This document shows, in pieces, positions 6,973 to 29,619 of a stretch of 64,000 nucleotides of DNA. Under the pieces are notes generated by a model. The model was not told the DNA's origin. It was given only the letters and a program-made list of their open reading frames with translations, and made no database searches. This DNA is from a virus (taxonomy: Duplodnaviria > Heunggongvirae > Uroviricota > Caudoviricetes). The stretch lies in IMG/VR virus record IMGVR_UViG_3300045391_007586. One strand, written 5' to 3'. A program made the translations under genes and the position numbers. The stretch's first letter is position 1. Each line of letters opens with the position of its first letter.

Positions 6973-7005
6973 TACTCCAAGTGAACACCATTGGCAAGTC
7001 CTTAC

Positions 7006-13363: not shown

Positions 13364-13543
13364 TTACAGATACCGGTCGTCCTTCATCATGCGGCTGCGT
13401 CGAATGCCGGCGCGGGCCGCGCGGATCGTCTCCTGTTCTTGCAGCTCGTCGAGATACGCCATGTCGGCTTCGATGGGCATGGCACCGATGTGCGAGGTCA
13501 GGCGAGTGCGTTGGGCGATGGGCATATTGCGCAAGACGTTCAT
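13364..13543 (-). CDS. small hypothetical protein (59 aa)
   Basis: AAGGAG RBS 6 nt upstream of ATG; MNVLRNMPIAQRTRLTSHIG... Confidence 0.35.
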   Translation of the reverse strand: MNVLRNMPIAQRTRLTSHIGAMPIEADMAYLDELQEQETIRAARAGIRRSRMMKDDRYL

Positions 13544-13619
13544 GTTGACTTCTCCTTCTCTGGTTAGATTGTCGTTCAGTTACGACAGACACATTGTGCA
13601 ACCTGAAAACTGGCGATGG

Positions 13620-13820
13620 TCAGAACTTCACCGGCGACCTGAGCGAGGCGATACGCTTGGGCATGCGGCACTCGTCGCCGGTCCACCACTGGCGAATGCC
13701 ACGAGCCTTGTTGAACAGAATGTCGATCAGCCCGCACCACAACGCGCCAATGCCAACGGCTGCGCCAATCACGAGTGCGAATGCTGCGATCCATTGTGCC
13801 AACTCTGCTGCCTGGTTCAT
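13620..13820 (-). CDS. small membrane protein (66 aa)
   Basis: AGAGAGGGGAA RBS; MNQAAELAQWIAAFALVIGAAVGIGALWCGL. Confidence 0.4.
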   Translation of the reverse strand: MNQAAELAQWIAAFALVIGAAVGIGALWCGLIDILFNKARGIRQWWTGDECRMPKRIASLRSPVKF

Positions 13821-13994
13821 GTTCCCCTCTCTTGAAAGTCTGTCAGTTGCGACAGAACGAATATTCGCACCTGCCGCATGGATTGAGTGTGGCTTTCTTC
13901 TAGTCGCCGAAGGTAGAAAAACATCCTTGCCGTCGCCACGGCAAATCCGTGGCATTTCTTTCTCCCGGCACGCTCGCCGGGATGGTCCTTGCCG

Positions 13995-14144
13995 TTACGA
14001 CAGCGACGGCACCGTCCGATACGGGTCGATGCTCACCAGATTGCCCATGTCGTCCGTCGTGAACAGTCCGCCATGTCCATCCCACACCTTGTAGAGAAAG
14101 CCAAAACGGCGCGACAGGACAGGCAGCACTTGCGTGAATTTCAT
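13995..14144 (-). CDS. small hypothetical protein (49 aa)
   Basis: CAGAGGGGAAC RBS then ATG; MKFTQVLPVLSRRFGFLYKVW... Confidence 0.3.
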   Translation of the reverse strand: MKFTQVLPVLSRRFGFLYKVWDGHGGLFTTDDMGNLVSIDPYRTVPSLS

Positions 14145-14377
14145 GTTGTTCCCCTCTGGGTGGTTGCGTTTCGGTAGTCGTATGGTCACAAGCTCAATGA
14201 GGCAATGGTGCGGCGCGTTGCACGTTGCCGTGGCCCCCGCTGGATGTTCGCCGGGCTGGCAATGCCACGGAAAGCTCGCCGTTCGCCGCTTGCCGGGCCG
14301 GGTCCGCGTGCTACGCTCTCTGCATCACATCGACATGCGCTTTGCCGCCACCTGCCGGCGCCTCTCGCGTGAAAACT

Positions 14378-14495
14378 CCAGGAAAGGCGGTGTCGGCGTG
14401 CGCAGGCGTTCCGTTCGACCGCGTGCCGGTGCGTGCCAGGCTGTAAGGACTCGGCGGAAAGTGGATGTTGGCGATGGCGGAGGCCCATTGACGCT
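14378..14495. repeat. two further copies of the about 35 bp iteron-like repeat
   Basis: tccaggaaaggcggtgtcggcgtgcgcaggcgttccgttcg and cggcggaaagtggatgttggcgatggcggaggcc resemble the 13.1 kb repeats. Confidence 0.4.
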
Positions 14496-14569
14496 ATAAG
14501 GCAAACCCATCACGCCTTACATACCCCCTGCCCTACATGCCTCTATGCACACTCATCCACTCTCTGTCT

Positions 14570-14791
14570 CTATTGACTGACTGTCTGGCGAGGCACGTAT
14601 CCATCCTTCTCTTTCCGTATCCACTGTCTCGTCTCCTTGCTCCACGTGTAATCGTCATCCTCTCCGGGCATGTAGAAGTCGAGCGCCGCGAGTGCTCCGT
14701 GTCCGTAGCCTCTGTTGTTCATTGCGTCCGCGATCGTCTTTCCGGTGACGACTTCCTTGTCACCGCCGCGCCAGTAAAGCGTGAATTTCAT
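14570..14791 (-). CDS. hypothetical protein
   Basis: 73 aa; AGAGAGGAAGAG RBS. Confidence 0.5.
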   Translation of the reverse strand: MKFTLYWRGGDKEVVTGKTIADAMNNRGYGHGALAALDFYMPGEDDDYTWSKETRQWIRKEKDGYVPRQTVSQ

Positions 14792-14984
14792 GAGCTCTTC
14801 CTCTCTTACGTTGGAACTTGGAGTTCGACTTGGGGCCGGACGCGTCTTCTATATCTTTAATAACGCTTCACAACCTTTCTTTACTTAAAACTTGAAGGAA
14901 ACTCGGACTTGGAGTCGAGTTCTGGAGATTTCTCTCCGGCTTGAACAAAACTGCCCCGGTTTCCTGAAACCTTGTAGCGATTGC

Positions 14985-15260
14985 TTATACCGGGCAGGCT
15001 TGCGTGATCTCCCGGCGTGCGATCCGGCGTTTCACGTTCCTGATGGTCTGTGCCTGCTGGCGTTCGATCTCGCGATCTACGCTGGTCTGGAGTTTTCGCT
15101 CGAACGAGCGGTCGATCTCGGAGTCGATGATGTCCTGCACGCCGATGCTGAAGAAGTCTCTCCAGTCCGGGTCATAGGTGCGGGCGCCTTCCCTGATAAG
15201 GCTGTCGAACGCGGTGTAAGCCACAGTGCTTCCCTGCATGGTTGGTTCGGGCCGACACAA
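14985..15260 (-). CDS. hypothetical protein
   Basis: 91 aa ORF; start uncertain (alternative ATG at 15239). Confidence 0.4.
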   Translation of the reverse strand: MCRPEPTMQGSTVAYTAFDSLIREGARTYDPDWRDFFSIGVQDIIDSEIDRSFERKLQTSVDREIERQQAQTIRNVKRRIARREITQACPV

Positions 15261-15637
15261 TCTGTCATCGATGACTGATTGTTTCGTAAACCGGCAGGCG
15301 ACGCAAGTGTTTTTGTCAGGCGAAGCTGACTGATGGATTCGGGTCGTTTAAACGCGTTTTGAGCGGTTCGCGGTTCGGGTAATGTGTTGACCCTGACCGA
15401 TCGATTGGAGCCGCTTGTGGGTCGATCTGGTTGGTTCCAGCGGGTGCTTCGGTCGCTTAGATATGAACCCGAGAACAGGTCAAAAGTGGATTCCCAGGAG
15501 TCTACAAGCGATACAAGGTTTCATGCCGTGAAAACAGGCGAAAAGCCGTTTACATTCAACGACTTATCCGTGGCTTGGGCGGGGGAATTTTGAAACCGGG
15601 TCTACTGGCTGTAGGAACCCGGTTGAGGCTGGCGATT

Positions 15638-16027
15638 TCAGATGTGTTCTATGCCAATCCCCGCCACGACGCAGCCAAGAAGAAACGCGGCTACCGGCAA
15701 CCACATCAATACGATGGCGACCCAGATCCAGAACTTGGCTCGATAATCACCGCCAGGATACTCCAACCATCCACCTTGCATATAACGTGCAATAAACATT
15801 GATGGCACTGCAAGTGCGCCAATAACGAAAATTGCCAACGCCAAGAGCCCGAACGGCCTGAAGCTGGCAAATTGAGCTTGCTTTTGCACGAGAGCCTGCA
15901 AGAGGCCAAGCATTGCGACTGCGCCGCCACCATTCAGAATGGCAGAAGCCTTCGCGCTTTGAGTCGCGAAGTCGTTCATTTCGGATCGGAGAGCAAGGTT
16001 GCGCTCGTGCGCAAACTGCGTCCCCAT
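15638..16027 (-). CDS. membrane protein
   Basis: Trimmed to ATG at 16027 with AGAGGGGACG RBS; three TM helices. Confidence 0.5.
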   Translation of the reverse strand: MGTQFAHERNLALRSEMNDFATQSAKASAILNGGGAVAMLGLLQALVQKQAQFASFRPFGLLALAIFVIGALAVPSMFIARYMQGGWLEYPGGDYRAKFWIWVAIVLMWLPVAAFLLGCVVAGIGIEHI

Positions 16028-16057: not shown

Positions 16058-16300
16058 TCAGTGCAGGAAGAGCTTCGCGAGCGCAGCGCCAGCAGCGAGC
16101 AGACCGGCACCCGCACCCATGAAACCCGTGGCGTAGACGAGCGGCGCGTAGCGGTTCTCGCGCTCGATCTTGATCGTCTCCTGTGACACCTTCATCCTCT
16201 CGTCGATGATTTTGAGGATTTCGGCGTTCATCTTGGCGATCTCGGTTTCGGTCTTGACCGTATCCAAGCTCGGCTCCGGTGCGGTATGCGGTGTGCTCAT
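16058..16300 (-). CDS. small membrane protein
   Basis: Trimmed to ATG at 16300; C-terminal Gly/Ala-rich TM segment. Confidence 0.45.
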   Translation of the reverse strand: MSTPHTAPEPSLDTVKTETEIAKMNAEILKIIDERMKVSQETIKIERENRYAPLVYATGFMGAGAGLLAAGAALAKLFLH

Positions 16301-16321
16301 TATAGGTCGGATTCCCTTGTT

Positions 16322-16359
16322 GGTTGCGACAGGGTTAGTGTCGCAACCGGGAACAGGCG
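16322..16359 (-). promoter_or_regulatory. motif 2 copy (GTTGCGAC-N-GTCGCAAC dyad plus CCGGG..AGGCG)
   Basis: ggttgcgacagggttagtgtcgcaaccgggaacaggcg, ending 22 nt upstream of the ATG at 16300. Confidence 0.45.
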
Positions 16360-16377
16360 TCGGGAGCTGGTTGCTGG

Positions 16378-16587
16378 CTACTTCTGCGGCGGGTTCGAGA
16401 CGATCAGCCACTTCTTGCTCGTGGCACTCCAGACCCACAGACTTTCGCCAGGCTTCACAGCCGGGATATTCACCCCTTCCGGGTAGTTGTCCACGAGCCG
16501 GCCATTCACATCGCGAATCTGGTAATCGCCGTCCTTCGGTGTTACGGGTGTTTTCAAATTGCCTCCGTTTTTGGCTTGAACTTTCAC
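16378..16587 (-). CDS. hypothetical protein
   Basis: 69 aa with ordinary composition. Confidence 0.45.
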   Translation of the reverse strand: MKVQAKNGGNLKTPVTPKDGDYQIRDVNGRLVDNYPEGVNIPAVKPGESLWVWSATSKKWLIVSNPPQK

Positions 16588-16591
16588 GGCG

Positions 16592-17011
16592 TTATCCTAC
16601 CAGCGCGCGGCTTTCGGCGTGATCGAACTCGGGCCTGTCGCGGCAGTTCGGGTTCAGCGTGTGCAGCGTCCGCAGCCCGTCCTCGTCACGCGTGATGATG
16701 CCAAGCGTGTAGCGTCCGTTCGACAGCGTGCGCGTGCGATCACCTTCCAGCGCGAAGAACTCGTCGTAGGACAGGTGCGACTTGGCCCGGTAGGCGCCAG
16801 TAACCGTCAGCCACCCGTGCGTGCCGTGCGGTGGCAGCTCACCTTCCAGCGTCAGACCCAAGCGTTCGAGCCACGCCAACAGGTGCTCGCGCTTTTCGAA
16901 GGCGGTGTGCGGCCCGTGCTGGTTCTGCACCAGATACCAGTAATTGCAGGTGCGCTCGTGGCCCTGCTGGTCGAGGCTGATCACGGTCAGTTTGTCGAAG
17001 GTTCCATACAT
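16592..17011 (-). CDS. hypothetical protein
   Basis: Trimmed to ATG at 17011 with GGGAG RBS. Confidence 0.5.
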   Translation of the reverse strand: MYGTFDKLTVISLDQQGHERTCNYWYLVQNQHGPHTAFEKREHLLAWLERLGLTLEGELPPHGTHGWLTVTGAYRAKSHLSYDEFFALEGDRTRTLSNGRYTLGIITRDEDGLRTLHTLNPNCRDRPEFDHAESRALVG

Positions 17012-17065
17012 AGCGTGCTCCCGTCTGTTGCGATAACGCAATTGTCGAAGCCCGGTATTGGCTCG

Positions 17066-17272
17066 TCACCGGGCAACGCTGGCGATTGCGTCCGCCTTCT
17101 CGAACGCCTCGATGGCGTAATCTAGGCGTCCGGCCTTGATGTTCTCGCTCACGACGGCAAACCACGCCACCGCAAACGAGTCGTCGACGAATGACATCGT
17201 TTCCTCAACGGTCTCGCCGGCCAGGAACCCGTTCGTCAAGCGTTTGCGAATCCGGTAGACCACCCGATTCAT
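17066..17272 (-). CDS. hypothetical protein
   Basis: 68 aa; stop overlaps the next start. Confidence 0.45.
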   Translation of the reverse strand: MNRVVYRIRKRLTNGFLAGETVEETMSFVDDSFAVAWFAVVSENIKAGRLDYAIEAFEKADAIASVAR

Positions 17273-17772
17273 GCTGCGACCGCCTGCTTGCCGTAGCGTT
17301 TCAGCCCCTCTCTGACGAGCGACCCGATGGCGTTGAGCACGCCGTTGCCGTCCTTTGTGTCGAACGCCGGCAGCGAGTCGATCGGCAGCGAGCAGCCCGA
17401 CAGCCCGAACTTTGGATCGACGTAGACCGTCTTGACGCCGGAGGCGAGCAGTGCGCGCCGCGCGTATTCCTCAAAGTCGGTCGTGTGGCCCATCAGCTCG
17501 TTGCAGGATGCGAGCTTCTTCTGGATCGACTCCAGCTTCTTGACGGCCACCTTCAGCTCTTCGAGGCCCGAGCCAACGTGCGAGTGGTATTCGATGTCGA
17601 ACGCGTAGGCTTCCGCGAACGAGTTGCTGAACCGGCAGCGGATTCGGATGTCGCCCATGTGCGAGTCACCGAAGGCGTTCGTCAGATAGTTGCGCAGTTC
17701 GATCGTGATCCGACCGAATCCGTATTCCGAGTCACCGTAGCAATAGGCGAATGGTTCCTTTTTGGCGGTCAT
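17269..17772 (-). CDS. hypothetical protein
   Basis: 167 aa; AGAGAGGGGAAA RBS; motif 2 copy at 17791-17828. Confidence 0.55.
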   Translation of the reverse strand: MTAKKEPFAYCYGDSEYGFGRITIELRNYLTNAFGDSHMGDIRIRCRFSNSFAEAYAFDIEYHSHVGSGLEELKVAVKKLESIQKKLASCNELMGHTTDFEEYARRALLASGVKTVYVDPKFGLSGCSLPIDSLPAFDTKDGNGVLNAIGSLVREGLKRYGKQAVAA

Positions 17773-17841
17773 TTTCCCCTCTCTGGGTCGGTTTTCGGTA
17801 TCGAAATGATCGCAACCGTCGCGAGGCGACGGTGTGGCAAG

Positions 17842-18225
17842 TTACGCGGCGAGCACTTCCGGCATGACGACGGGCAGGCTGCTGGAGCCCTCGGGATCGG
17901 ACAAATAGTCGAACGCTCGCGAGAGCGGAAGCCCACGGTGCGCGTAGGCGTTCAGAGTCGCAATTACGCAGGCTTGCAGGTGATCGGCATCGCGCAGGTG
18001 CGGCGAAACTGTTGGATCGAAGAACTCGACCGTGACGGCATTCTCGTGCAGGCGCAGTTTACCCAGGCGAGGCGGCAGCGCACGCGTGTCGTCTGGATGC
18101 TCGAACTTCACAACCAGGACGTGCGAACCATCGGCGCGCTCGTGGAGCCGGTAGAGGCGCAGATGGTGCTGGCGATAGGCGCGTGCGTGAGCTTGGCGTT
18201 GTTCGGCGTTCAGGTTGAGGCTCAT
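17842..18225 (-). CDS. hypothetical protein
   Basis: 127 aa; motif 2 copy at 18244-18283 upstream. Confidence 0.5.
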   Translation of the reverse strand: MSLNLNAEQRQAHARAYRQHHLRLYRLHERADGSHVLVVKFEHPDDTRALPPRLGKLRLHENAVTVEFFDPTVSPHLRDADHLQACVIATLNAYAHRGLPLSRAFDYLSDPEGSSSLPVVMPEVLAA

Positions 18226-18345
18226 CGTTTTCCCGTCTGGGTTCGTTGTCGATACAGATATGGTCGCAACGCAGACAAGGAAAGGGGGTGGCGAACTACA
18301 TCGCGCCGTGGCATCGCAATCGGCCGGCGCGAAGCCGGCGCGAGG

Positions 18346-18525
18346 CTATGCCGCCTTTGGCAGCACGAGGAAAACACCCCGCTCGCAGACTTCAGTGTTG
18401 AACGCTTCCTCGCCGGCCTGGACGAGCGTGTTGATTGCGTCCGCTCCGGCTTGCGCTTCGTCATCCGCTTCCATCTCGATTGTGTGGCGGACAACTTCCT
18501 CGATCGTAACGACGAATTTGGGCAT
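18346..18525 (-). CDS. small acidic hypothetical protein (59 aa)
   Basis: AGAAGGAGAAAG RBS; MPKFVVTIEEVVRHTIEMEADDEAQAG... Confidence 0.35.
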   Translation of the reverse strand: MPKFVVTIEEVVRHTIEMEADDEAQAGADAINTLVQAGEEAFNTEVCERGVFLVLPKAA

Positions 18526-18554
18526 GGCTTTCTCCTTCTAAAGCTGATCGGGAA

Positions 18555-18824
18555 TCACTTCCAGAAGCCAGGGTTCGGGACGCTCTGCAAGGCACGGCTC
18601 CGAAGCAGGCTCTTTTCACTGTTCAGTTGGCTCTGCGTGAGCCCGATGTGACCGGAAGTGCTCGGGTTGAAGTATCCCGGCATCAAGTCCTTGCGCGCAG
18701 ATCGCTGGCGATACAAGCGCATGTAGTGCTCGGTTGACTTGAAACCGCGGATCGGATGGCCGCTCTTTGGATACGCGCTCGTCGCGGCCGTTGCGAGCAA
18801 AAGCAAAACTGCGAGTTTCCGCAT
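18555..18824 (-). CDS. secreted protein with signal peptide
   Basis: MRKLAVLLLLATAATSAYP signal; motif 2 copy at 18847-18888 upstream. Confidence 0.5.
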   Translation of the reverse strand: MRKLAVLLLLATAATSAYPKSGHPIRGFKSTEHYMRLYRQRSARKDLMPGYFNPSTSGHIGLTQSQLNSEKSLLRSRALQSVPNPGFWK

Positions 18825-18896
18825 CGTGTGTCTCTGGTTCGTTGCGACAGGTGAATGATCGCGCCCGGTAGCAGGCGCGAAAACCGTTGACGTTGG

Positions 18897-19124
18897 CTAT
18901 CTCGCGAAGTGCGCTTCGAGCTTTGTGTGGATCTCTTTTGCGACTCCCTGCCACGCATCGGCGCCGATCATCGGGTTCTCGCCGAACGCCTCGCGCAACT
19001 CTTCGATCGGCGTCTCGGCGACCTGTCTGGCGTGCTTCGACAGCACGTCCATCACGAACGCCTGCGCGAGCGCGCCGAAACGCGAGAACTCCATAATCTT
19101 CGTGACGCATTCCACGTTGGTCAT
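18897..19124 (-). CDS. hypothetical protein
   Basis: Trimmed to the internal ATG (MTNVECVTKIMEF...). Confidence 0.4.
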   Translation of the reverse strand: MTNVECVTKIMEFSRFGALAQAFVMDVLSKHARQVAETPIEELREAFGENPMIGADAWQGVAKEIHTKLEAHFAR

Positions 19125-19134
19125 TTGCTTTGCC

Positions 19135-19278
19135 TTAGCTGTTGAGCCATTCTTCGTAGGTCTTGACAGCCCAGCCGAGCGCTTCGGCGTTGGCGACGTA
19201 AATCTGATACTCGTCGTCGTTTGAGCCACGCTGCTGCGTCTGCCAGTCAGCGTTCGGGATGAGTCGCGGATCGTCCAT
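19135..19278 (-). CDS. small hypothetical protein (47 aa)
   Basis: GAGGGACC RBS; MDDPRLIPNADWQTQQRGSNDDEYQIYVANAEALGW... Confidence 0.3.
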   Translation of the reverse strand: MDDPRLIPNADWQTQQRGSNDDEYQIYVANAEALGWAVKTYEEWLNS

Positions 19279-19294
19279 CTGGTCCCTCGTTGTG

Positions 19295-19335
19295 TCGTTG
19301 CGGTAGAGCTATAGTCGCAACCGGGTATAGGCGCG
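19295..19335 (-). promoter_or_regulatory. motif 2 copy (best exemplar)
   Basis: gtcgttgcggtagagctatagtcgcaaccgggtataggcgc, ending 17 nt upstream of the ATG at 19278. Confidence 0.5.
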
Positions 19336-19378
19336 TGAACCGTCGGGCTAGGAGAAGTAGCGATAGACTGCGCAGTCG

Positions 19379-19588
19379 TCAGTCGTCGCCATCCGCCCCT
19401 CCGTTCGCCACCACTTCGTCCAGTTGATCCTCATCGAGGTCGTCGCAGTCGAAGCTGCCGTCCTCGACTTGGTAGCATTGCTCCAGCTTCGCCTGGTGCT
19501 CGTCGCGCTCGTGGTGGCGATGCCGGTGTTCGTTCGCGAACGCGGCCGGCGCCCACAAGATCAGTGCGCAGATCAGGATCGTCTTCAT
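19379..19588 (-). CDS. secreted acidic His-rich small protein
   Basis: MKTILICALILWAPAAFA signal; HRHRHHERDEH then acidic tail. Confidence 0.45.
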   Translation of the reverse strand: MKTILICALILWAPAAFANEHRHRHHERDEHQAKLEQCYQVEDGSFDCDDLDEDQLDEVVANGGADGDD

Positions 19589-19818
19589 GCCTGCCCCGTC
19601 TCTTCCCGATAGTTCCTCCGCGCACCGTCCAGCAGTGTTTCGAAGTCCATGCCGTTGCGGTCGCACCAGTGCATGAGGTCGGCGAGCAAATCGCCAGGCG
19701 CCTCGTCCGCTTCGCAATTCGTCTCGCCCCTGAACGCGCGCAGTGCAACGCCGGCCCAATACGCGCGGGCGTCATTCATCCGTTCCGGGTCGGGTGGCAA
19801 TTCACGTTTGTCTGTCAT
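19585..19818 (-). CDS. hypothetical protein
   Basis: 77 aa; ATGA overlap. Confidence 0.5.
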   Translation of the reverse strand: MTDKRELPPDPERMNDARAYWAGVALRAFRGETNCEADEAPGDLLADLMHWCDRNGMDFETLLDGARRNYREETGQA

Positions 19819-20141
19819 GCGTCCTCCATCAGAATGAATCCGCAGTAAGCCTTGTCGCGCACGATGATCGCGGGGTGGTCGTATCCATCGGCCGCGCTCG
19901 TCGTCGCCTCAAGAATCCAGCGGCTCGCGTCCCAATCACGCCAGCCAGTCGTTTCCAACGCCTGCTGATAGTGGTAAAGCGACCGGAACTCGACCGTCAC
20001 GGTGTGCAGCCACTCGAAGTGACGCACGCCAAGCAGTGCGATCTCATAGTCGCCCGCGTCGTTGGCAATCTGCTCCTGCTCTTTCTCGGACAGGTTCGAC
20101 GGATACGGGAACGGATAGCCGTTTCTGAGAATCAGTTTCAT
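19815..20141 (-). CDS. hypothetical protein
   Basis: 108 aa; ATGA overlap. Confidence 0.55.
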   Translation of the reverse strand: MKLILRNGYPFPYPSNLSEKEQEQIANDAGDYEIALLGVRHFEWLHTVTVEFRSLYHYQQALETTGWRDWDASRWILEATTSAADGYDHPAIIVRDKAYCGFILMEDA

Positions 20142-20399
20142 GCCGCTTTCTCCTTCAACGTCTTGCCGGGTTCGCGGGTCCGGCAGAATTCAAGCCACGT
20201 GCAGCCGGTCGCCTTGTGCGCCTTCACAAACTCGTTGCGCAGGTCGGCATATCGGATGGCATCCTTCAGCGTGTAGGGGTGGCTGAAGCGGCCTCGAACA
20301 GTCGCGTGCGTGATCCCGTTTTCCCAGGACCAGATTCATGCCGGCCTGCCACACGATGTGATGCGTATCGTTCTGGTAGAGAATGGTTTGCCTGTGCAT
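20138..20399 (-). pseudogene. hypothetical gene interrupted by an apparent frameshift near 20290-20310
   Basis: N-terminal frame MHRQTILYQNDTHHIVWQAGMNLV..., then a second frame continues ...ENGITHATVRGRFSHPYTLKDAIRYADLRNEFVKAHKATGCTWLEFCRTREPGKTLKEKAA, ending with an ATGA overlap onto the next gene. The shift occurs at gggaaaacggg. Confidence 0.4.
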
Positions 20400-20403
20400 C
20401 GCG

Positions 20404-20664
20404 TCACCATTCGATTTCGATGGACTCGATCGCGTCTTCCGCGATGAAGATTTCGCGGTCAAGTCGCCCGCCGTCTTCCGCGGTGAGCGGGTCCGGGTGC
20501 CAGAGGTTCAGGTGAAGAACGCCGGTCTTGCGCACGCTTTCTTCCGTGCTGAAGCTGCCGCCTCGATAGAATTGCCCGCTCTTTGTGCGGACCTGGAACA
20601 CGTATCCCGCACCGCCGTGCTCCGGCTTGTCCGCTTCGTGCAATGCAGCCTGAACGATGCTCAT
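20404..20664 (-). CDS. hypothetical protein
   Basis: Trimmed to the internal ATG (MSIVQAALHEADKPEHGGAGYVFQ...). Confidence 0.45.
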   Translation of the reverse strand: MSIVQAALHEADKPEHGGAGYVFQVRTKSGQFYRGGSFSTEESVRKTGVLHLNLWHPDPLTAEDGGRLDREIFIAEDAIESIEIEW

Positions 20665-21086
20665 GGGCGGCTCCACAGTTCGGACAGGGTGAAATGCGTC
20701 TGGTGGAGACCCTTGCCGTTCTGATGCGACGGCAGATACCAGGCATCGTCCGCTTTCACGGTGAACTCGAACTTCAGGTCCGCCAGAGGCTTGCAGCGGA
20801 ACCAGACGCCCGCCTTGATCAAACCATCCGCAGTGGTGCCCGCGGCGAGAGCTCCGGCGATCGTGATCTTCACGGTCTTGCAGACATCCGGTTGCGGCTT
20901 GTCGACATAGGCGAGCGTGTCGCACTCCGGGCAGCGCCCTACCGGCGACGGGTCTCCCGGCGTCAGAACGCAGTCCTCGACATTCCGCGTCGCGCTGGCA
21001 GGCCCTTGCCAATCGCAATCGCTGCACGAACAGGGCGCGTCGTCTTCGACGCCATCAACCATTGCTGTGTATGTTTCGGTCGTCAT
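20661..21086 (-). CDS. Cys-rich (zinc-ribbon) hypothetical protein
   Basis: CSCSDCDW...CPECD; motif 2 copy at 21101-21138 and motif 1 copy at 21144-21163 upstream. Confidence 0.5.
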   Translation of the reverse strand: MTTETYTAMVDGVEDDAPCSCSDCDWQGPASATRNVEDCVLTPGDPSPVGRCPECDTLAYVDKPQPDVCKTVKITIAGALAAGTTADGLIKAGVWFRCKPLADLKFEFTVKADDAWYLPSHQNGKGLHQTHFTLSELWSRP

Positions 21087-21176
21087 GTTTGACTCGTTGT
21101 GTTGTTTCGGTATGTGTATGGTCGCGATTGCAGACAGGACTATCAATCAGCTACGACTGATTGTCCTGTCAAACCG

Positions 21177-21914
21177 TTACTCGTCCGAGCCGAGCAGCGT
21201 GGCGGCTCGCGTCTGCGCGGTCGCCAGCTCGCCAAGCGCCGTGCGCAACGCCGCCACTTGCTCCGCGCACTCTGGCGCATCGGTGTAAATGTCAGCGGCA
21301 GCAGCCGAATCAACAGCGCCGGCCGCTTTGCACAGGTCTTTCAGCGCCCGGATAGCGTCATGCCGATCAACGATCGGCTGGCCCCACTTCTCTACGATGT
21401 CGCGGATGACCCAATCGAGCAGGATCGCCTGGCCGGTCGTGCAACGGCCCCAGATGGTCATCCCCATGAAGTCGCGCGCCACAATCTCGCCGCGCTCTTC
21501 CAGCTCGCGCGCAAGCTGGTCGCTGACGATCCAGTGCTCGTATGCCTCGTTTGTATGAGGCTGTATGTCGTTCCCGTTTGCGAACGACTCCAGCTCGCCC
21601 TCCGTCTCCAGGTGTTCAAGGTAGGCTGTCAGCAGCGCTTCCTTGTCCTCGTGGTCGTAGCACTCGAAGCCAGCATCCGTCAGCGCCTCGACGAGCTTGG
21701 TCCGATCCCACTCCTGGCGCAGATAGTCCTCGACCGGCTCCTTGAAGTCGTCCTGCACGCACAGATCGCGCAGCTCGTCCTCGTCGATGTCCAGCGCACG
21801 GGCGGCGTCATAGTTCCGCGCAAGATCGCCGATAAGGCTGCTGACGCATGCGAAAACATGCTGGCCGACGAACGTGCGGCACTTTTCCTGGAGCTTCGAT
21901 TCGCTGTCTTTCAT
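21177..21914 (-). CDS. hypothetical acidic protein
   Basis: Trimmed to ATG at 21914 with AAAGAGGA RBS; motifs 2 and 1 at 21941-22008 upstream. Confidence 0.55.
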   Translation of the reverse strand: MKDSESKLQEKCRTFVGQHVFACVSSLIGDLARNYDAARALDIDEDELRDLCVQDDFKEPVEDYLRQEWDRTKLVEALTDAGFECYDHEDKEALLTAYLEHLETEGELESFANGNDIQPHTNEAYEHWIVSDQLARELEERGEIVARDFMGMTIWGRCTTGQAILLDWVIRDIVEKWGQPIVDRHDAIRALKDLCKAAGAVDSAAAADIYTDAPECAEQVAALRTALGELATAQTRAATLLGSDE

Positions 21915-22022
21915 GGTGTCCTCTTTCGCGCACATCGCGCGTCGTTGTTTCGGTAGACGTATATTCGCGCCCACGCGTAGGAGCGTCACTCATCTACGAC
22001 TGATAGCCTGCACAAAAGCCAA

Positions 22023-22298
22023 TCAAAGATGGCGAGCCAGCTCCTTCCCCACGACTTCAGCGAGGCGTTCGTCCCGCTCCTTCAGCGTGACGCGCTCGCC
22101 GGCCAGCATCCACTCTTCCGCCTGATCGTAGGACTCGGTGATCTCGCCGGACTCCATGTTCTCCCACGCGTCGTTGATGTCGTCCGACCACTCCTTGATC
22201 TTCTCGATGGCAGTCGGGAATGACATTTCGTGCGGAATGCCCAACAGGCTCGCGTTGGCTTGCGCGATGGCGTGGCGGATGTCGTCAGTGAGTGTCAT
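22023..22298 (-). CDS. hypothetical protein
   Basis: 91 aa acidic. Confidence 0.5.
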   Translation of the reverse strand: MTLTDDIRHAIAQANASLLGIPHEMSFPTAIEKIKEWSDDINDAWENMESGEITESYDQAEEWMLAGERVTLKERDERLAEVVGKELARHL

Positions 22299-22491
22299 GG
22301 CGTTGTTCCCGACTTGGCAGGACGTTCAGAAAACCTTCGAAGCGCTTCCACAGGCTCGGCCGGCGCTCAATGTTGCGCGCCAGCTCTTCGCGCGTCATAC
22401 CCTCGCGCACCAGTTCCATGAAGACTTCGTTGGCACCAGCGATGTTGCGCTGCTGATTGTAAAAGATCGCGAGCTGCTCGTCATCGGTCGT
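22285..22491 (-). CDS. hypothetical protein
   Basis: GTG start after GGAAGAGG RBS. Confidence 0.4.
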   Translation of the reverse strand, partial: TTDDEQLAIFYNQQRNIAGANEVFMELVREGMTREELARNIERRPSLWKRFEGFLNVLPSREQRHDTH

Positions 22492-22793
22492 CACGCCTCT
22501 TCCTCCACGAGAACGCCGAAATACGCGTAGCACTCTTCGCCCGCTTGCTCGCTCCAGCGCCGACGAAGATCGAGGTCCGCGAACAGCGCGTCCGCAGCCT
22601 CGTGCAACGCCTCATAGTCTTTGGGCGTCGCCTGCTTGTCGCCCATGTAGCCGGACCATCCGTTGATCTCGTCGTGCAGTCCATTCAGGACCGCATCGGA
22701 GCGCATGTTCCGGCAGAGTGGAACCGCGAACGTCTCACCGCCAAAGCCCTGAAAGTAGTCGAGCAGACACGTATCGAGGTATTTGATGTTCAT
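22491..22793 (-). CDS. hypothetical protein
   Basis: Start set at MNIKYLD so that the motif 2 copy (22809-22848) lies upstream, as at the other seven sites. Confidence 0.45.
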   Translation of the reverse strand: MNIKYLDTCLLDYFQGFGGETFAVPLCRNMRSDAVLNGLHDEINGWSGYMGDKQATPKDYEALHEAADALFADLDLRRRWSEQAGEECYAYFGVLVEEEA

Positions 22794-22925
22794 AGTCTTG
22801 TCGATATTGGTTGTGACAGACATATGCTCTCAACCGGGTATAGGCGCGACCAGTCAGTTTTGTGGCGATCGTGAAGGCGCGCTATCAGCGCACACTGTGG
22901 ATGGCCGCACGGGCGCACTGAATCC

Positions 22926-24332
22926 CTATAACGAACGCGCCAGCGTCCCGACCGCCTCTACGCTTCGCTCGAACTCGCATGTCCAAGGGTGGCCGTAGTT
23001 CAGCCGGACACAATTTCGGAATCCGCGTGTTGCCGAAAAGATCGGGCCAGGCGCAATGCCGATGCCCTGCTCCAGCGACAGCTCGAAAAGGCGTAGCGCG
23101 TCGGCCTGCGGCGGCAACTCCAACCAAAGAAAATAGCCTCCCTGTGGGCGCGCAACTCGCGTCCCAGACGGAAAGAATCTTTCGACGGCCTCCACCATCT
23201 TGTCTTGTTGAACGGCAAGATTTCTCCGGAGTTGGTGCAGATGGCGATTGTAGCCGCGACCCTGCAAAATATCGGCAATGGCCAACTGTGACGGCACGAA
23301 CGTCGATATATTGGTCATCCACTTCGCCCGCGCGACCTGCTGCGTGAAGCGGCCCGCCGCAACCCATCCCACGCGATAACCTGGCGCGAGGCTCTTTGAG
23401 AAGGAACTGCAATGGAGCACCAACCCTTTCCGATCGAATGTCTTGGATGGGCGCGGACGCGACGCTCCGAAATACAGTTCGGCGTATACGTCATCCTCGA
23501 TCAGCGGCACGTCATGAGCGGCCAGCAGTGTAACCAATGCATTCTTCGCCGCGTCCGACATAGTGACGCCGGTCGGGTTCTGAAAAGACGTCATGAACAA
23601 GCACGCGCGGATTGGATGCCGCTGAAGCGCGTCAGCAAGCGCTGAAAGATCGAGACCTTCCGTCGGATCGATGGGAATCTCGATGGCCTTCAGTCGTAGC
23701 CTATCGAGTATCTGAAGCGTTGCGTAGAAAGCCGGTGCCTGGATTGCGACCGCATCGCCGGGACTGGTTACGGTCTGCAAACAAAGCGTCAGCGCTTCCA
23801 ACGCTCCATTCGTCACGACAACTTCATCGATTGGCACCGCGATTCCCGCATCTAGGTAGCGACGGACAATCTGGCGCCGCAAGCTCTCGTCACCGAAGTG
23901 CAGTTCGATGCGGGTCGCGCCGGAACGCGTTTTGCGCATGACCGATGCCAATGCACGGTCGAGCCGATTCAATGGGAATGAGTCTGAACTTGGAAGCGCC
24001 GAGCCAAGCGGCACAATGTCGGGATTCTCGATCGAATCCAACACCCGAAACACGAGATCGTCTGAATCAGCCGTCAGGGGCACGCATGTCGGTCGGACGA
24101 TCGACGATCCAAGCAATGTCTGACAGGCACCCGGCACGACGAAATAGCCGGAACGAGGCCGCGCCTCAATGAGGCCGTCGCGTTCCAACAAGTAATAAGC
24201 CTGAAACACCGTTCCCGCGCTCGCGCCATACGACTTGGTCGCCTGACGCACAGACGGGAGACGCATGCCTGGGACAAGATGTCCGCACCGAATTAGCCCG
24301 GCAATTTGCGCCGCCAGTTTCTTGTAACGCAT
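22926..24332 (-). CDS. MocR/GntR-family transcriptional regulator with PLP-dependent aminotransferase-like domain
   Basis: N-terminal GntR wHTH (VRQATKSYGASAGTVFQAYYLLERDGLIEARPRSGYFV) and a class-I aminotransferase fold. Confidence 0.85.
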   Translation of the reverse strand: MRYKKLAAQIAGLIRCGHLVPGMRLPSVRQATKSYGASAGTVFQAYYLLERDGLIEARPRSGYFVVPGACQTLLGSSIVRPTCVPLTADSDDLVFRVLDSIENPDIVPLGSALPSSDSFPLNRLDRALASVMRKTRSGATRIELHFGDESLRRQIVRRYLDAGIAVPIDEVVVTNGALEALTLCLQTVTSPGDAVAIQAPAFYATLQILDRLRLKAIEIPIDPTEGLDLSALADALQRHPIRACLFMTSFQNPTGVTMSDAAKNALVTLLAAHDVPLIEDDVYAELYFGASRPRPSKTFDRKGLVLHCSSFSKSLAPGYRVGWVAAGRFTQQVARAKWMTNISTFVPSQLAIADILQGRGYNRHLHQLRRNLAVQQDKMVEAVERFFPSGTRVARPQGGYFLWLELPPQADALRLFELSLEQGIGIAPGPIFSATRGFRNCVRLNYGHPWTCEFERSVEAVGTLARSL

Positions 24333-24608
24333 GGTTCGAATACCTTCGCCGCATTGTCGGTCGTCCGGTTGCCCCCTTTGAATTTGCGACGGTCAATGGT
24401 GGCGAGGGCGCCGCTCGACATGGGTCGGTCTTATTAGAAATTAGTGGCAGAACAGAGGCTCCTCGTTTGTCCCGCTGGTGTGCGCCACACTTTGCGCTGT
24501 CGCTCGGGCAGAAAGTCAACCTTAAACGATGTATTACCACCTAAAACGCCCTTCATGTCAATAGGTTGTCTTGCCACTATTTGGGTGGTATATGATGGGA
24601 GGAATGAA

Positions 24609-24968
24609 GTGCATCAGGAAGAACAAACACCACTGTCAAAATCCGTGGGGAAAGCGATTGCAAACCGCCGGGTTCTGGCGAATCTGACTCAGGAGCAGGT
24701 CGCCGAAAAGCTAGGGATCGGGCAGGAAGCTATCTCGCGGATGGAGAGAGGCGTTGCGAGTCCAACGGTCACCCGTTTGGCGGAGTTGGCCGACATATAC
24801 AAATGCGATCTCAGTCAGTTGCTTACTGAAGCCTCGGATCGGGAAGACGACCAAGCCAAGATCATCTCCGCCATCATCGGTCGGTTACCCAGTAACGATC
24901 GACTCCTACTGATCGAATGGCTAAAGGCATTTGCCGACAGGCTTCTATCGGCGTCTAGACCAAATTAG
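24609..24968 (+). CDS. XRE-family (Cro/CI-type) HTH transcriptional regulator
   Basis: GTG start after GGGAGG RBS; LANLTQEQVAEKLGIGQEAISRMERG HTH; candidate TTGTCT-17-TATATG promoter upstream. Confidence 0.75.
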   Translation: MHQEEQTPLSKSVGKAIANRRVLANLTQEQVAEKLGIGQEAISRMERGVASPTVTRLAELADIYKCDLSQLLTEASDREDDQAKIISAIIGRLPSNDRLLLIEWLKAFADRLLSASRPN

Positions 24969-26572
24969 ACCCGGTAAACTTGCAATTTCGAAGTCTTGGT
25001 TAGCGAGTGTCGACGCAATGAACCACCTCGTTCGGCATCTCGCGCCCTCTGAAGTCTCCCCGCAAGACGTGACGGTCCACCGCTCTCAAGGAATGCCTCC
25101 AGCCGGGCAATAGTCAGCGCGCGACTGTAAAAGAAACCTTGTCCAAAATCGGCTCTGGAGGCGTGGAGTGCCTGGTGGTGAGCTGCGCTTTCGACTCCGT
25201 CGGCCACGAGCATGGCGCCTACGTCGTGAGCGACATCGGCCATCGTCGCAAGGCGCGACACGCGCTCGTCGCTGTCAAGAGTGAGCACCTGCCTGTCCAT
25301 CTTGATCACATCGAAATCGAAGTTCCTGAGCAAGCGGAAGTTGATCGGGCCTAAGCCGGCACCAGCGAGCGCAAATCGAACCCCGTCTTTCCTCAAGAAT
25401 GCCAACGATTCCAGCACCCGTGACGCGGTGTCCGCGCAATCACTCTCCGTTACTTCCAGAACCAGATGGGGCAATATTCCATTGGCCGACTCCTGCACGT
25501 CTGATACGAAGCTGTCGGCGGCCATTTGAGCAGCGGAGACCTTCACCGAGATATAGAACGAATTCGCAACGCTCAACTCGGCGAAATCGCGGGCTACGGC
25601 AGCAAGCATGAATCGAGTCAGAGGGCCAACTACTTTGCTGTGTTCGAGACGATTCATGAAATGCGCTGGCCCTCCCAGACCAAATTCAAGATTGTCCCAA
25701 CGAAGCAGCGCTTCAATGCCGACGCACTTGCCAGTGCGGATACGGATCACTGGCTGATACTCCAGGCGAAACTCTCCGCGCTTCAATCCTCGTCGAGCTG
25801 CGCGAGCAAGTCTTGCATCCGGCGTAAATTGCCATCTGTAGAGCGCCCAACATCCAAGGACTAGCAGACAAATAAGCCCCAGACCGAGCAACACGTAGGC
25901 GCCGAAACGCACGGCCCAAGGATCGAAAGAAGGTGCACTGATCGCTTGCGACGACGGCTCGACAGGAAATATCCTGCTGCCCTGCACAGGCACGACCCGC
26001 TCAACACACGCGCGACCCTCTCCGCATTCGGCCAGAATCGGCAACCTTGGCGCCGATTGGATAGCATCCCCAGCAGGCGCCGACACGGGCGCCGGGGCCA
26101 ACGCGTCCATGCTAAACGGCACGCTGGGCTGAGCCACGATAGAAGGGCTCACTGCTACGGAAGCGTCAGGAATAACGTTTGTGTCGGCCATGCTGCCAAG
26201 CGCCCCACCGCCGATCTCCAACGGGTCGAGCATTGAAATGCAACGCAGTTGGTGAATGTCCACCTGTCCTATCAGGCCTGCGACCGGCCCCGCCAGCGTT
26301 GCGGGTGCCGGTAGCATGACGGGAAGCGTGCAGACGGTGCCGAATTGCAGACGCGCAACGTGCTTCGGAGCAGTCATCTCCGACAATCCTTGCGCAAAGG
26401 CCGCGATCCGACGCCCCACGTCATCGATCACACTACCCGGGCTCGTGTTCGCATGCGCGGGAGGTTCCAATGCGGCGAGAAGAAAAAGCATGACGAACAG
26501 TGATTTAGTCATGCGAAAAGATGGTTTATCGCCCGGTCTCACGGCGTCACGTTGGTGGCTTATGGCAATCAT
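24965..26572 (-). CDS. membrane-anchored EAL-domain c-di-GMP phosphodiesterase (CSS-like periplasmic sensor plus EAL)
   Basis: LEYQPVIRIRTGKCVGIEALLRW EAL signature; N-terminal hydrophobic segments; start could alternatively be ATG at 26512. Confidence 0.8.
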   Translation of the reverse strand: MIAISHQRDAVRPGDKPSFRMTKSLFVMLFLLAALEPPAHANTSPGSVIDDVGRRIAAFAQGLSEMTAPKHVARLQFGTVCTLPVMLPAPATLAGPVAGLIGQVDIHQLRCISMLDPLEIGGGALGSMADTNVIPDASVAVSPSIVAQPSVPFSMDALAPAPVSAPAGDAIQSAPRLPILAECGEGRACVERVVPVQGSRIFPVEPSSQAISAPSFDPWAVRFGAYVLLGLGLICLLVLGCWALYRWQFTPDARLARAARRGLKRGEFRLEYQPVIRIRTGKCVGIEALLRWDNLEFGLGGPAHFMNRLEHSKVVGPLTRFMLAAVARDFAELSVANSFYISVKVSAAQMAADSFVSDVQESANGILPHLVLEVTESDCADTASRVLESLAFLRKDGVRFALAGAGLGPINFRLLRNFDFDVIKMDRQVLTLDSDERVSRLATMADVAHDVGAMLVADGVESAAHHQALHASRADFGQGFFYSRALTIARLEAFLESGGPSRLAGRLQRARDAERGGSLRRHSLTKTSKLQVYRV

Positions 26573-29429: not shown

Positions 29430-29558
29430 GGTGTCACTCCTTAGTGAGTCGTTCGGTTTCGGTTTTTGTTTTGTCGCTCAGTTGCGACAGAACGAACTTT
29501 AAAGACCCAACTTTGGCAGTAGTGACAGGCGAGGCACGTTTCCAATGAGGTCGCCAGA

Positions 29559-29583
29559 AACGAAAAAGGCGAGCTCGCGCCCG
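29559..29583 (-). terminator. possible terminator hairpin with U-tract (minus strand)
   Basis: ggcgagctcgcgcccgcc imperfect stem preceded on plus by gaaaaag (a U-tract on minus). Confidence 0.3.
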
Positions 29584-29619
29584 CCGTGGATACAGTCGCC
29601 CGCTTGGCGCGGGCCTCAG

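Follow-up and report, generated by a model that had tools for sequence, protein, structure and literature searches.

The repeated 40-base element motif 2, which was analysed in a 64,000-nucleotide stretch of viral DNA (the window), probably represents a set of promoter cassettes that belong to a plasmid-like siphophage and are read by the sigma-70 RNA polymerase of its host. SSU5 and the Acinetobacter AB group are relatives of the source phage. The repeat itself is confirmed, its conserved columns fit the positions of an extended -10 sigma-70 promoter and its conservation spans three hosts. As such, motif 2 is an ordinary kind of feature.

All eight copies listed in a first-pass annotation were recovered where it had placed them, and an ungapped alignment agrees with the minus-strand gene sense assigned to each. 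The reported identity between the copies at 19295 and 22809 over CAACCGGGTATAGGCGCG is correct, and the 19-mer that they share gave 3 matches against 0.02 expected. The number of copies in the window was nevertheless too low and is corrected from eight to 13, the five extra ones being located at 17026-17065, 14167-14206, 13845-13885, 13578-13617 and 29480-29520. Twelve copies lie within 13.58-22.85 kb and one more at 29.5 kb, and none was found on the plus strand of the window. All are intergenic (0 within coding sequence) and oriented as the genes, and they precede small hypothetical genes of the accessory region, as had been described. The distance to the start codon, given as 15-27 nt, is 15-31 nt for the eight copies with our start-codon assignments. 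The copies in the window are given below, with predicted starts and predicted driven genes.

13578..13617, minus strand: c12 (extra, variant); -10 CACAAT 13593-13598; predicted start G 13586, for gene 13364-13543; the leader opens with a small 5'-terminal hairpin
13845..13885, minus strand: c11 (extra); TGC and GAATAT 13861-13866; 7-nt discriminator; predicted start G 13853, for gene 13620-13820; a CTGT-N8-ACAG palindrome at 13840-13855 overlaps the predicted start
14167..14206, minus strand: c10 (extra); TGT and GACCAT 14182-14187; predicted start A 14175, for the 49-aa ORF 13995-14144
16322..16361, minus strand: c1; TGC and GACACT 16337-16342; predicted start G 16330, for gene 16058-16300; only copy with a perfect 8-bp dyad (16323-16330 / 16340-16347)
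17026..17069, minus strand: c9 (extra); -35 GTGACG at 17 bp; -10 GACAAT 17041-17046; predicted start A 17034, for gene 16592-17011; its upstream half is duplicated about 21 nt further upstream
17791..17830, minus strand: c2; TGC and GATCAT 17806-17811; predicted start A 17799, for gene 17269-17772 and probably also 17066-17272
18245..18284, minus strand: c3; TGC and GACCAT 18260-18265; predicted start A 18253, for gene 17842-18225
18840..18879, minus strand: c4; no TG; weak -35 TTTTCG; -10 GATCAT 18855-18860; predicted start G 18848, for gene 18555-18824, the protein of which has an N-terminus resembling a signal peptide
19296..19335, minus strand: c5; CGCCT box; TGC and GACTAT 19311-19316; predicted start A 19304, for gene 19135-19278
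21103..21146, minus strand: c6; -35 TTGATA 21141-21146 (motif-1 arm), exactly 17 bp from -10 GACCAT 21118-21123; predicted start A 21111, for gene 20661-21086
21946..21989, minus strand: c7; no TG; -35 GTGACG 21984-21989 from a motif-1 arm; -10 GAATAT 21961-21966; predicted start A 21954, +1 block ACCGAAAC, for the 245-aa gene 21177-21914
22809..22848, minus strand: c8; box CGCCT at -29..-25; TGA and -10 GAGCAT 22824-22829; predicted start G 22817, +1 block GTCACAAC, for gene 22491-22793 and probably also 22285-22479 and 22023-22298
29480..29520, minus strand: c13 (extra, outside the cluster); -10 TAAAGT 29496-29501; predicted start G 29488, for gene 28425-29429

The promoter register was fitted after the fact to an alignment of 28 copies (13 from the window, 10 from Burkholderia gladioli and 5 from Acinetobacter), in which A-11 and T-7 are the sole invariant columns (28/28 each), while A-8 is found in 25 of the 28 copies and 17 have TG at -15/-14. 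All copies share a pyrimidine-purine step 6-7 nt downstream of the -10 hexamer (Y-1 and R+1, 28/28 each); next come a conserved +2..+8 block, YCG(C/A)AAC, and a leader, 20-59 nt long, that is rich in A and weakly structured. These columns match an extended -10 sigma-70 promoter, which bears out the earlier suggestion of a promoter-type signal; a transcription start inside the element is likewise supported as most likely, at a predicted purine located 20-59 nt before the start codon. Copies c6, c7, g3 and g4, which lack TG, carry TTGATA, GTGACG, TTGATC and TTGATT, respectively, exactly 17 bp upstream of the -10. The contrast with TG copies in the quality of the -35 reaches no more than a trend (Mann-Whitney p = 0.085), and the four strongest TG-less cases are two orthologous pairs. 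Among 147 positions per upstream region, a generic E. coli-type promoter matrix put the chosen -10 at rank 1 in 7 of 13 regions, that of c6 among them, and within the top 4 in 11 of 13. These generic scores are modest (3-8 bits) and position -12 is G instead of T in 21 of 28 copies, and for these reasons unaided promoter activity is not assured. The +2..+8 block and a conserved box CGCC[T/A] at -29..-25, whose core CC[T/A] at -27..-25 is present in Burkholderia, Acinetobacter and nickie copies, go beyond what a plain promoter explains and probably serve added regulation or act on the mRNA.

Read in the direction of the genes, the left block ggTTGcGAccAT would thus be an extended -10 element (T-15, G-14, n, G-12, A-11, n, n, A-8, T-7), and no -35 would be conserved because such an element needs none. 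The transcript would begin with the conserved purine located 7-8 nt past the hexamer, just after the conserved pyrimidine, and the right block would therefore constitute the first eight or nine mRNA bases, R-YCG(C/A)AAC. Thereafter would come an A-rich, T-poor, weakly folded leader, a Shine-Dalgarno sequence and the ATG, with one to four small accessory genes driven per cassette. Both sigma-70 use and the exact start site are what we infer here.

About ten copies of the same element are present in a 111 kb B. gladioli contig (L003), five in recognisable form in a syntenic Acinetobacter baumannii AB-group phage-plasmid (L136), and isolated copies in the phages nickie and SSU5. A matrix trained on window copies only detected 8 gene-strand sites in the B. 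gladioli relative, against 0.02 in shuffles, and 0 on its other strand. A Burkholderia-type-only profile detected the five Acinetobacter plasmid sites, all on the gene strand and 13-20 nt 5' of annotated starts. The element is retained at orthologous genes, namely 19135-19278 (copy c5) with L003 11600-11749, and 28425-29429 (c13) with L003 3640-4608 and L136 30138-31076. The genes driven by the cassettes differ between relatives, and the cassette therefore acts like a promoter module that is portable. Two Acinetobacter copies (-10 hexamers at 38094 and 41469; genes starting at 38133, ardA, and 41509) lie directly downstream of strong intrinsic terminators, whose ends are at L136 38037 and 41303, so that transcription must restart there. 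Similar hairpins, and dyads of a second repeat, motif 1, adjoin copies in the window:

13917..13945, minus strand: terminator-like hairpin and T-run, between ORF 13995-14144 and promoter c11
21138..21165, minus strand: motif-1 dyad AATCAG-N6-CTGATT; right arm overlaps the c6 -35, centre about -42.5
21981..22008, minus strand: motif-1 dyad; right arm overlaps the c7 -35
29557..29585, minus strand: terminator-like hairpin GGCGGGC-GCGA-GCUCGCC with UUUUUCGUUUC after it; located past the stop of gene 29620-29967 and ahead of promoter c13

The clean separation of the two motifs that had been proposed does not hold at 21138-21165 and 21981-22008, where the motif-1 right arm supplies the motif-2 -35 hexamer.

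The -10 without a conserved -35, together with a box conserved immediately 3' of where a -35 would lie, the non-consensus -12G and the modest generic scores, would also suit a promoter for which the host holoenzyme alone is insufficient. A phage activator, a sigma-appropriating pair or an alternative sigma would then bind the -29..-25 box, and perhaps also the TTGCGAC block, and motif 2 would count as a delayed temporal class like T4 middle or P1 late promoters. There is precedent in P1, whose late genes require a phage-encoded RNA-polymerase-binding factor (PMC8198154). This appears unlikely, however: neither a Pfam scan of roughly 60 window proteins nor the full annotation of the Acinetobacter relative revealed a phage RNA polymerase or sigma factor, and MotA, AsiA, Lpa and sigma families had no match among the window proteins scanned (small proteins only partly covered) and are not annotated in the complete Acinetobacter relative. 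Furthermore, ardA is among the driven genes in Acinetobacter, and an anti-restriction gene is expected to be active immediately on entry, before any phage protein, while extended -10 promoters work without activators. The class is not alien to the host, its conserved letters being the ones that define an extended -10 sigma-70 promoter. A dedicated regulator, as the first-pass annotation envisaged, could act at the -29..-25 box or the +2..+8 block.

The dyad with N10 described in that annotation is indeed perfect, as GTTGCGAC/GTCGCAAC, at 16323-16347, but only there and with a 9-nt spacer; elsewhere each arm is degenerate independently of the other. That a dimeric repressor or activator occupies GTTGCGAC-N9-GTCGCAAC (-17 to +8) as its operator is quite improbable, even though the site would span the -10 and the start, the classical repressor position, and phage-plasmids have dispersed multi-copy operators, such as the C1 operators of P1. 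Were it true, the genes would be switched off in the plasmid-prophage state. At the consensus level 56% of cells pair between the blocks, compared with 22-42% after shifting the partner by 1-3 columns, but pairing within copies (56%) does not exceed that in between-copy shuffles (57.7%; 469 of 500 shuffles at least as high). The left half-site is missing in c6, c7, c13, g3 and g4 while the right block is still perfect, and only 4 of 6 positions are complementary in Acinetobacter (TTGAGA / TCGAAA). The left arm is already accounted for by the TG and the -12/-11 positions, and in nickie, SSU5 and Acinetobacter the same right block lies 5-9 nt after the -10 hexamer of unrelated promoter sequences (TTGCAC-16-TAGAAT; TG-g-GATAAT; TGC-TAATAT). 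The half-site centres are moreover 17 bp apart and thus on different helix faces. With no covariation and many copies lacking a dyad, the proposed dimeric site is unsupported, and the palindrome is most likely largely a by-product. LexA, named earlier as a candidate regulator, fits one copy only, at 13840-13855.

It is very improbable that the -10 core fires backwards or both ways and yields RNAs antisense to the preceding gene at its 3' end. The symmetry of the ANNNT core gives the antisense register the same -10 score as the sense one; antisense hexamers such as TATAGT, TATGGT and TATATT are nearer TATAAT than the sense hexamers and reach 8.7 bits with the generic matrix, the TATAGT type scoring at least as high as sense. 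However, TG occurs in 0 of 28 copies in that register, its -35 match is at background (2.39 vs 2.33, with 3.0 for sense), no ORF or conserved sequence lies downstream, and the fixed start-codon distance and the terminator-promoter-gene units would be left unexplained.

A nucleic-acid hairpin (an N4-type promoter, a site of RNase III or other processing, a terminator, an anti-terminator or a cruciform) is hardly conceivable and was rejected despite the location between cistrons and the 9-bp stem that c1 can form, as the dyad lacks covariation (no compensatory variation between arms) and is missing from many copies, a stem is impossible in half of them, no T-run follows it, the left arm would be absent from the RNA because it lies upstream of the predicted start, and no Rfam family matched anywhere in the window.

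As a promoter cassette, motif 2 resembles the extended -10 (TGn) sigma-70 promoters established in proteobacteria and their phages in its TG at -15/-14 one base 5' of the hexamer, invariant A-11 and T-7, dispensable -35 and predicted purine start 7-8 nt downstream. It differs from them in the mostly G at -12, the added CC[T/A] box at -27..-25, the eight bases kept at the very start of the predicted transcript, and the repetition of the whole unit 10-13 times per genome. Morons of temperate phages are genes flanked by their own sigma-70 promoter and intrinsic terminator, and the Acinetobacter units are similarly promoter-gene-terminator monocistrons in an accessory region; unlike morons, all motif-2 units share one conserved promoter and leader, and most window units are without clear terminators. 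Mycobacteriophage start-associated sequences and stoperators (13-17 bp) either contain the ribosome-binding site or serve as repressor sites. They too are asymmetric repeats that follow gene orientation and occupy short intergenic gaps at a fixed start-codon distance, but they have no -10-like core. T4 middle promoters combine a MotA box at -30 with a -10. P1 late promoters are Lpa-dependent (PMC8198154). Both share with motif 2 a good -10, no conserved -35 and an extra box between -30 and -20, but the box sequence differs and activator homologues were not found among the scanned window proteins. Classes of repeated intergenic sequence in the halovirus HF2 were shown by reporters to be promoters (PMC8707807), but the HF2 system is archaeal, with TATA/BRE-type signals. 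The promoter-early stem-loop cassettes (PeSLs) of T4-type phages (PMC2839356, PMC4122927) are unrelated in sequence and phage lineage and include a stem-loop terminator, which the motif-2 unit lacks, its terminators being separate where present. Both are nonetheless conserved composite intergenic motifs with a promoter, repeated in a variable region before small unknown genes, which vary among close relatives, and both are plausible candidate recombination points.

Motif 2, the repeated element of about 40 bp lying 5' of minus-strand genes, was confirmed in all eight copies listed by the first-pass annotation, and these align without gaps when read in the sense of the minus-strand genes. The 18-nt identity reported for the copies at 19295 and 22809 is likewise correct. 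Matrix and profile scans added five copies and located none on the plus strand or in the coding sequence of the window.

Additional motif-2 copies in the window
17026-17065, minus strand, motif-2 copy
14167-14206, minus strand, motif-2 copy
13845-13885, minus strand, motif-2 copy c11
13578-13617, minus strand, motif-2 copy c12
29480-29520, minus strand, motif-2 copy c13

A matrix trained on the window copies only found eight sites on the gene strand of a Burkholderia gladioli contig (L003) and none on the opposite strand, against 0.02 sites expected from dinucleotide shuffles. A profile trained on Burkholderia-type copies only recovered five sites in an Acinetobacter plasmid (E-values 7.6e-5 to 0.4), all on the gene strand, 13-20 nt 5' of annotated start codons and in a syntenic region. 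In the window, B. gladioli and Acinetobacter alike, every copy is intergenic and co-oriented with the genes. The repeat is genuine, its recurrence being far above what chance would give. Scans for exact patterns in viral, genome and metagenome collections, with a pattern that was too loose for the genome contigs, returned chance singletons or an unrelated phage only, and literature searches gave no description of motif 2 or of motif 1, another dyad repeat of the window.

The window has 60% G+C and carries nearly every gene on the minus strand. Pfam matches comprise a DnaE-UDG fusion (58711-62115), ribonucleotide reductase, an SbcCD-like nuclease, RecA, a gp32-like protein, a 5'-3' exonuclease, ThyX, RtcB, a 3'-5' exonuclease, an SPFH protein, two ParB_N proteins, an ABC-type ATPase, thioredoxin and a DEAD-box helicase. 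This DnaE shares 57% identity with its counterpart in Acinetobacter baumannii plasmids of about 107 kb and 37-44% with those in Stenotrophomonas phage ANB28, Rhizobium RHEph10-like phages, Pseudomonas phage nickie and Salmonella phage SSU5. Such Acinetobacter plasmids form the "AB group" of phage-plasmids, with two ParB genes and recA, which is related to the SSU5 supergroup and has nickie as a distant relative (PMC7969092). This membership, and a gene order parallel to that of the Acinetobacter element NZ_CP027608.1, identify the window, as judged from sequence, as the half of a plasmid-like siphophage that holds its replication and accessory genes, the host being of Burkholderia type. A megablast comparison of the region with phages and plasmids gave no match; the nearest relative found is the 111-kb B. 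gladioli contig JBMDMM010000028.1 (L003).

The register of motif 2 became visible in the copies from the A+T-rich Acinetobacter genome (e.g. ...TTGTTTGTCCAaaaaccgaTTGAGAGAATtacttcATCGAAACAA...). Across 28 copies (13 from the window, ten from B. gladioli and five from Acinetobacter), the hexamer that begins at the G of the left-block GAC has A-11 and T-7 in 28/28, and these are the sole invariant columns of the alignment. One base 5' of it, a TG at -15/-14 is present in 17 copies (T-15 in 19, G-14 in 22) and absent in 11. Such a combination is typical of extended -10 sigma-70 promoters, which need no -35 hexamer. A pyrimidine-purine step, the usual start-site dinucleotide at a usual distance after a -10, follows the hexamer in 28/28, at 6 nt or, in four copies (three from the window and one from L003), at 7 nt. 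The right block of what had been read as a dyad would then form transcript positions +1 to +8, R-YCG(C/A)AAC. Predicted leaders span 20-59 nt, contain 40% A and 8% T, and show weaker folding than length-matched random segments (mean z = +1.6). When scored by a generic E. coli-type matrix, the proposed hexamer was the best of 147 positions in seven of 13 upstream regions and among the top four in 11. A -35 match of at least 4/6 at 16-18 bp was seen in 5/11 TG-less copies (background probability 0.095); over all copies the -35 contrast between TG and TG-less copies is a trend only (p = 0.085), its four best cases being two orthologous pairs.

The genes around several copies support a restart of transcription at this point. 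A number of units on the Acinetobacter plasmid are monocistronic, and at its locus L136 two copies follow terminators.

Features at Acinetobacter plasmid locus L136, in order
37620-37997, gene
38016-38037, intrinsic terminator with 8-bp stem
38094, motif-2 -10 hexamer
38133, ardA
41281-41303, terminator
41469, motif-2 -10 hexamer
41509, gene

Since terminators stand directly upstream of these two copies, transcription must restart inside motif 2. Terminator-like hairpins with T-runs are also found upstream of c13 and c11 in the window. Furthermore, the +1 block recurs 5-9 nt 3' of differing -10 hexamers in relatives.

Related promoter-like sites in relatives
nickie: TTGCAC-N16-TAGAAT, 7 nt, then +1 block GTCGAAAC
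nickie, second site: TATAGT with a GCCTA box at -28..-24
SSU5: TG-g-GATAAT, 5 nt, then +1 block GTCGAAAC
Acinetobacter: TGC-TAATAT, 9 nt, then +1 block CCGAAAC

Motif 2 is thus probably a repeated phage promoter cassette of the extended -10 sigma-70 type, with predicted start sites and a predicted sigma-70 dependence. The initial idea of a promoter is supported by the -10 and TG columns, the pyrimidine-purine step, the placement in gene sense and the upstream terminators. The mechanism of such a cassette is not a new kind; what stands out in the sequence comparison is the unusual degree to which elements of Burkholderia, Acinetobacter and Pseudomonas have preserved the sequence of motif 2.

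The antisense strand also has a -10-like hexamer (TATAGT, TATGGT) whose generic matrix score is equal to or better than that in sense. This is because ANNNT is its own complement. The remaining signals are confined to the sense direction: TG in the antisense register occurs in 0/28 copies versus 17/28 in sense, the -35 match is 3.0 in sense and 2.39 in antisense against a background of 2.33, and both the pyrimidine-purine step and the genes themselves fit the sense direction only.

Motif 2 had also been taken for a site of a dimeric regulator on account of a dyad with a 10-nt spacer. A perfect dyad does exist, at 16323-16347 (c1) only and with a spacer of 9 nt; the left half-site is missing in c6 (21103-21146), c7 (21946-21989), c13 and the B. 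gladioli copies g3 and g4, and the right block is perfect in copies lacking the left arm, so an operator of this type is not supported. A repressor covering -17..+8 is possible. Putative regulators include a wHTH-like protein at 1885-2238 (minus strand), which has no Pfam match, and genes that the annotation of the Acinetobacter relative gives as HTH. LexA, which had been named as a candidate, does not suit motif 2 as a class: the box CTGT-N8-ACAG is seen with c11 (13840-13855) and its counterpart in B. gladioli, and with no other copy. In the whole window this pattern occurs twice (9830-9845 and 13840-13855; 0.66 expected), which is not above chance; the palindrome at 9830-9845, CTGTATATCCATACAG, is near the E. 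coli SOS consensus, and that at 13840-13855 overlaps the predicted c11 start.

The complementarity of the two blocks might instead reflect an RNA or DNA hairpin or cruciform, as in an N4-type promoter, an RNase III site or a terminator. Over 28 copies the nine proposed pairs form in 56% of cells, compared with 57.7% when the 3' arms are dealt among copies; 469 of 500 such shuffles pair at least as well as observed, and covariation scores 0.073, below the 0.095 of the shuffles. Shifting the partner by 1-3 columns reduces pairing to 22-42%. Because sliding lowers pairing and within-copy pairing equals that of shuffled arms, the consensus blocks are complementary, though this is not maintained in single copies. 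With no compensatory changes and no Rfam match, the hairpin was rejected; Rfam had no match anywhere in the window, and a tRNA search was negative.

Other promoter classes were rejected. TTGCGA read as a sigma-70 -35 leads to hexamers 17 bp downstream (CCAACA, CGACAC) without A-11 and T-7; a two-hexamer promoter scan gave nothing at motif 2 because it demands a -35. The resemblance of GCGACTATAG to the T7-like promoter CGACTCACTATAG is accompanied by conservation well past the 23-bp unit and by no RNA polymerase gene: T7-, N4- and phiKZ-type phage RNA polymerases had no Pfam match in about 60 scanned window proteins, and the annotation of the complete 107-kb Acinetobacter relative lists none. 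Sigma-54 (GG-N10-GC), sigma-32, sigma-E/ECF and sigma-28 consensus sequences were unfit in spacing or letters in a by-eye check.

Motif 1 (AATCAG-N6-CTGATT; ATCAGTC-N5-CTGAT) has at least 12 copies all along the window, within or over sigma-70-like promoters.

Motif-1 copies in the window
1484-1511, motif 1
12000-12027, motif 1
15256-15283, motif 1
21138-21165, motif 1, adjoining motif 2
21981-22008, motif 1, adjoining motif 2
34007-34034, motif 1
37668-37695, motif 1
37990-38017, motif 1
40413-40440, motif 1
44855-44882, motif 1
46238-46265, motif 1
58684-58711, motif 1

The AB-group plasmid of Acinetobacter has it within the spacer of TTGAAA-N18-TATACT promoters, as TTGAAA-ag-ATCAGTCAGTACTGAC-TATACT, and motif 1 resembles an operator for a global regulator. 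Some of its copies can be read as either of two overlapping promoters. Motif 2 had been described as distinct from motif 1, and this separation was not borne out. The copies c6, c7, g3 and g4 have no TG and possess a -35 (TTGATA, GTGACG, TTGATC or TTGATT) exactly 17 bp upstream, which comes from the right arm of motif 1, whose dyad centre falls at about -42.5. Real sigma-70 promoters are expected to have either TG or a -35 where the other is lacking.

A plain promoter does not account for some features of motif 2. A box [C/T]GCC[T/A] (GTCC[A/T] in some copies and in Acinetobacter) is found at -29..-25 in three host lineages and is repeated about 21 nt further upstream in four copies, G is strongly favoured at -12, and the predicted first eight transcribed bases are conserved. 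Together these suggest a layer added to the plain promoter: the box may be the site of an activator or a repressor, or the 5' end of the mRNA may act in its stability, in translation or in the binding of a factor. The T4 middle (MotA/AsiA) and P1 late (Lpa) promoters, where an activator acts at an extra box, similarly combine a -10 lacking a -35 with a box between -30 and -20. No homologue of a MotA-, AsiA- or Lpa-type activator or co-activator was present among the roughly 60 window proteins scanned. In the leaders of c11-c13 a small hairpin, GUCGC-AACUGA-GCGAC, starts exactly at the predicted +1; c12 has U:A in place of a C:G pair, a compensatory change, and the hairpin may be a 5'-terminal stabiliser.

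Predicted 5'-terminal leader hairpins
13838-13853, minus strand, c11 leader
13571-13586, minus strand, c12 leader
29473-29488, minus strand, c13 leader

The TCGCCA form of the box matches the B-box hexamer of P1 parS, and two ParB_N genes lie near (5174-5833 and 6265-7056), making a KorB-like regulatory role of ParB-like proteins conceivable. With 90 copies in the window this hexamer is common, and for this reason nothing is concluded on it as a ParB B-box. The Acinetobacter phage-plasmid NZ_CP027608.1 carries its own hfq gene (locus L141, 818-1357), and one may speculate that the A-rich leaders with AAC repeats are Hfq targets. A bolder and rather doubtful proposal is that the R-YCG(C/A)AAC start, the A-rich AAC-repeat leader and the -27 CC[T/A] box mark an anti-defence/accessory regulon, long kept in beta- and gamma-proteobacterial phage-plasmids and read by a conserved factor, for which a 5'-end RNA-binding protein, a KorB/ParB-like global regulator and an Hfq-type chaperone are candidates. 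If true, the genes would be controlled together by this factor once the DNA has entered the cell or while it persists as a plasmid. The conserved first eight transcript bases and the -27 box are in any case concrete and cheap handles toward the regulator of the region.

The first genes downstream of motif-2 copies gave no Pfam family above threshold; two of ten belong to PHROG families of unknown function, and only 5/13 have a B. gladioli homologue, although shared genes keep a collinear order. The cassette thus behaves like a portable promoter placed before variable cargo. This resembles moron architecture and the PeSLs of T4-type phages, where a repeated promoter motif likewise flanks genes that differ between relatives (PMC2839356, PMC4122927); the PeSL unit includes a stem-loop terminator, whereas motif-2 terminators occur in some units and outside the conserved motif. 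Recombination may have taken place at the motif-2 repeats. The 245-aa protein downstream of c7 (21177-21914) was not confirmed as ArdA, having neither a Pfam match nor a tblastn match from Acinetobacter ArdA, and its homologues in contigs L001, L004 and L132 belong to other phage types without motif 2. The unrelated phage L004 (Logan contig from SRR8840928) has its own palindromic intergenic repeat, TGTCCAAyTGGACA, 5' of many genes (e.g. 2680-2695, 3375-3390, 8170-8185, 9937-9952 and 13409-13422).

The 13 predicted starts provide a promoter map for the least understood part of the Burkholderia relatives of the AB-group/SSU5 phage-plasmids, a poorly studied group. On the minus strand of the window the purines predicted as +1 are 22817, 21954, 21111, 19304, 18848, 18253, 17799, 17034, 16330, 14175, 13853, 13586 and 29488; the corresponding predictions for NZ_CP027608.1 fall near 52108, 59594, 60105, 62883 and 63480. 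Since motifs 1 and 2 are common to hosts of different classes, they can be used to find accessory and anti-defence cassettes in new genomes.

Some further features of the window were observed. An island of lower GC3 at 22926-28160, with a GntR-aminotransferase (MocR-type) gene and two EAL-domain genes, sits between the c13 gene and promoter c8 (22809-22848), is absent there in the Acinetobacter and B. gladioli relatives, and is probably plasmid-type cargo. The stretch 12800-15640 is long, mostly non-coding, without Rfam match and rich in repeats (13114-13169, 13179-13234, 14364-14419); similar GGCGACAC...TCCGAATCT repeats occur at 17101-19143 of the B. gladioli contig, and the stretch could be an origin/iteron region or code for small RNAs. 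Finally, 35477-36472 and 36469-37656 contain a Peptidase_S74 (endosialidase chaperone) domain and a Hint/intein-like match that is weak, and the replication/accessory half is an odd place for such tail-fibre-like genes.
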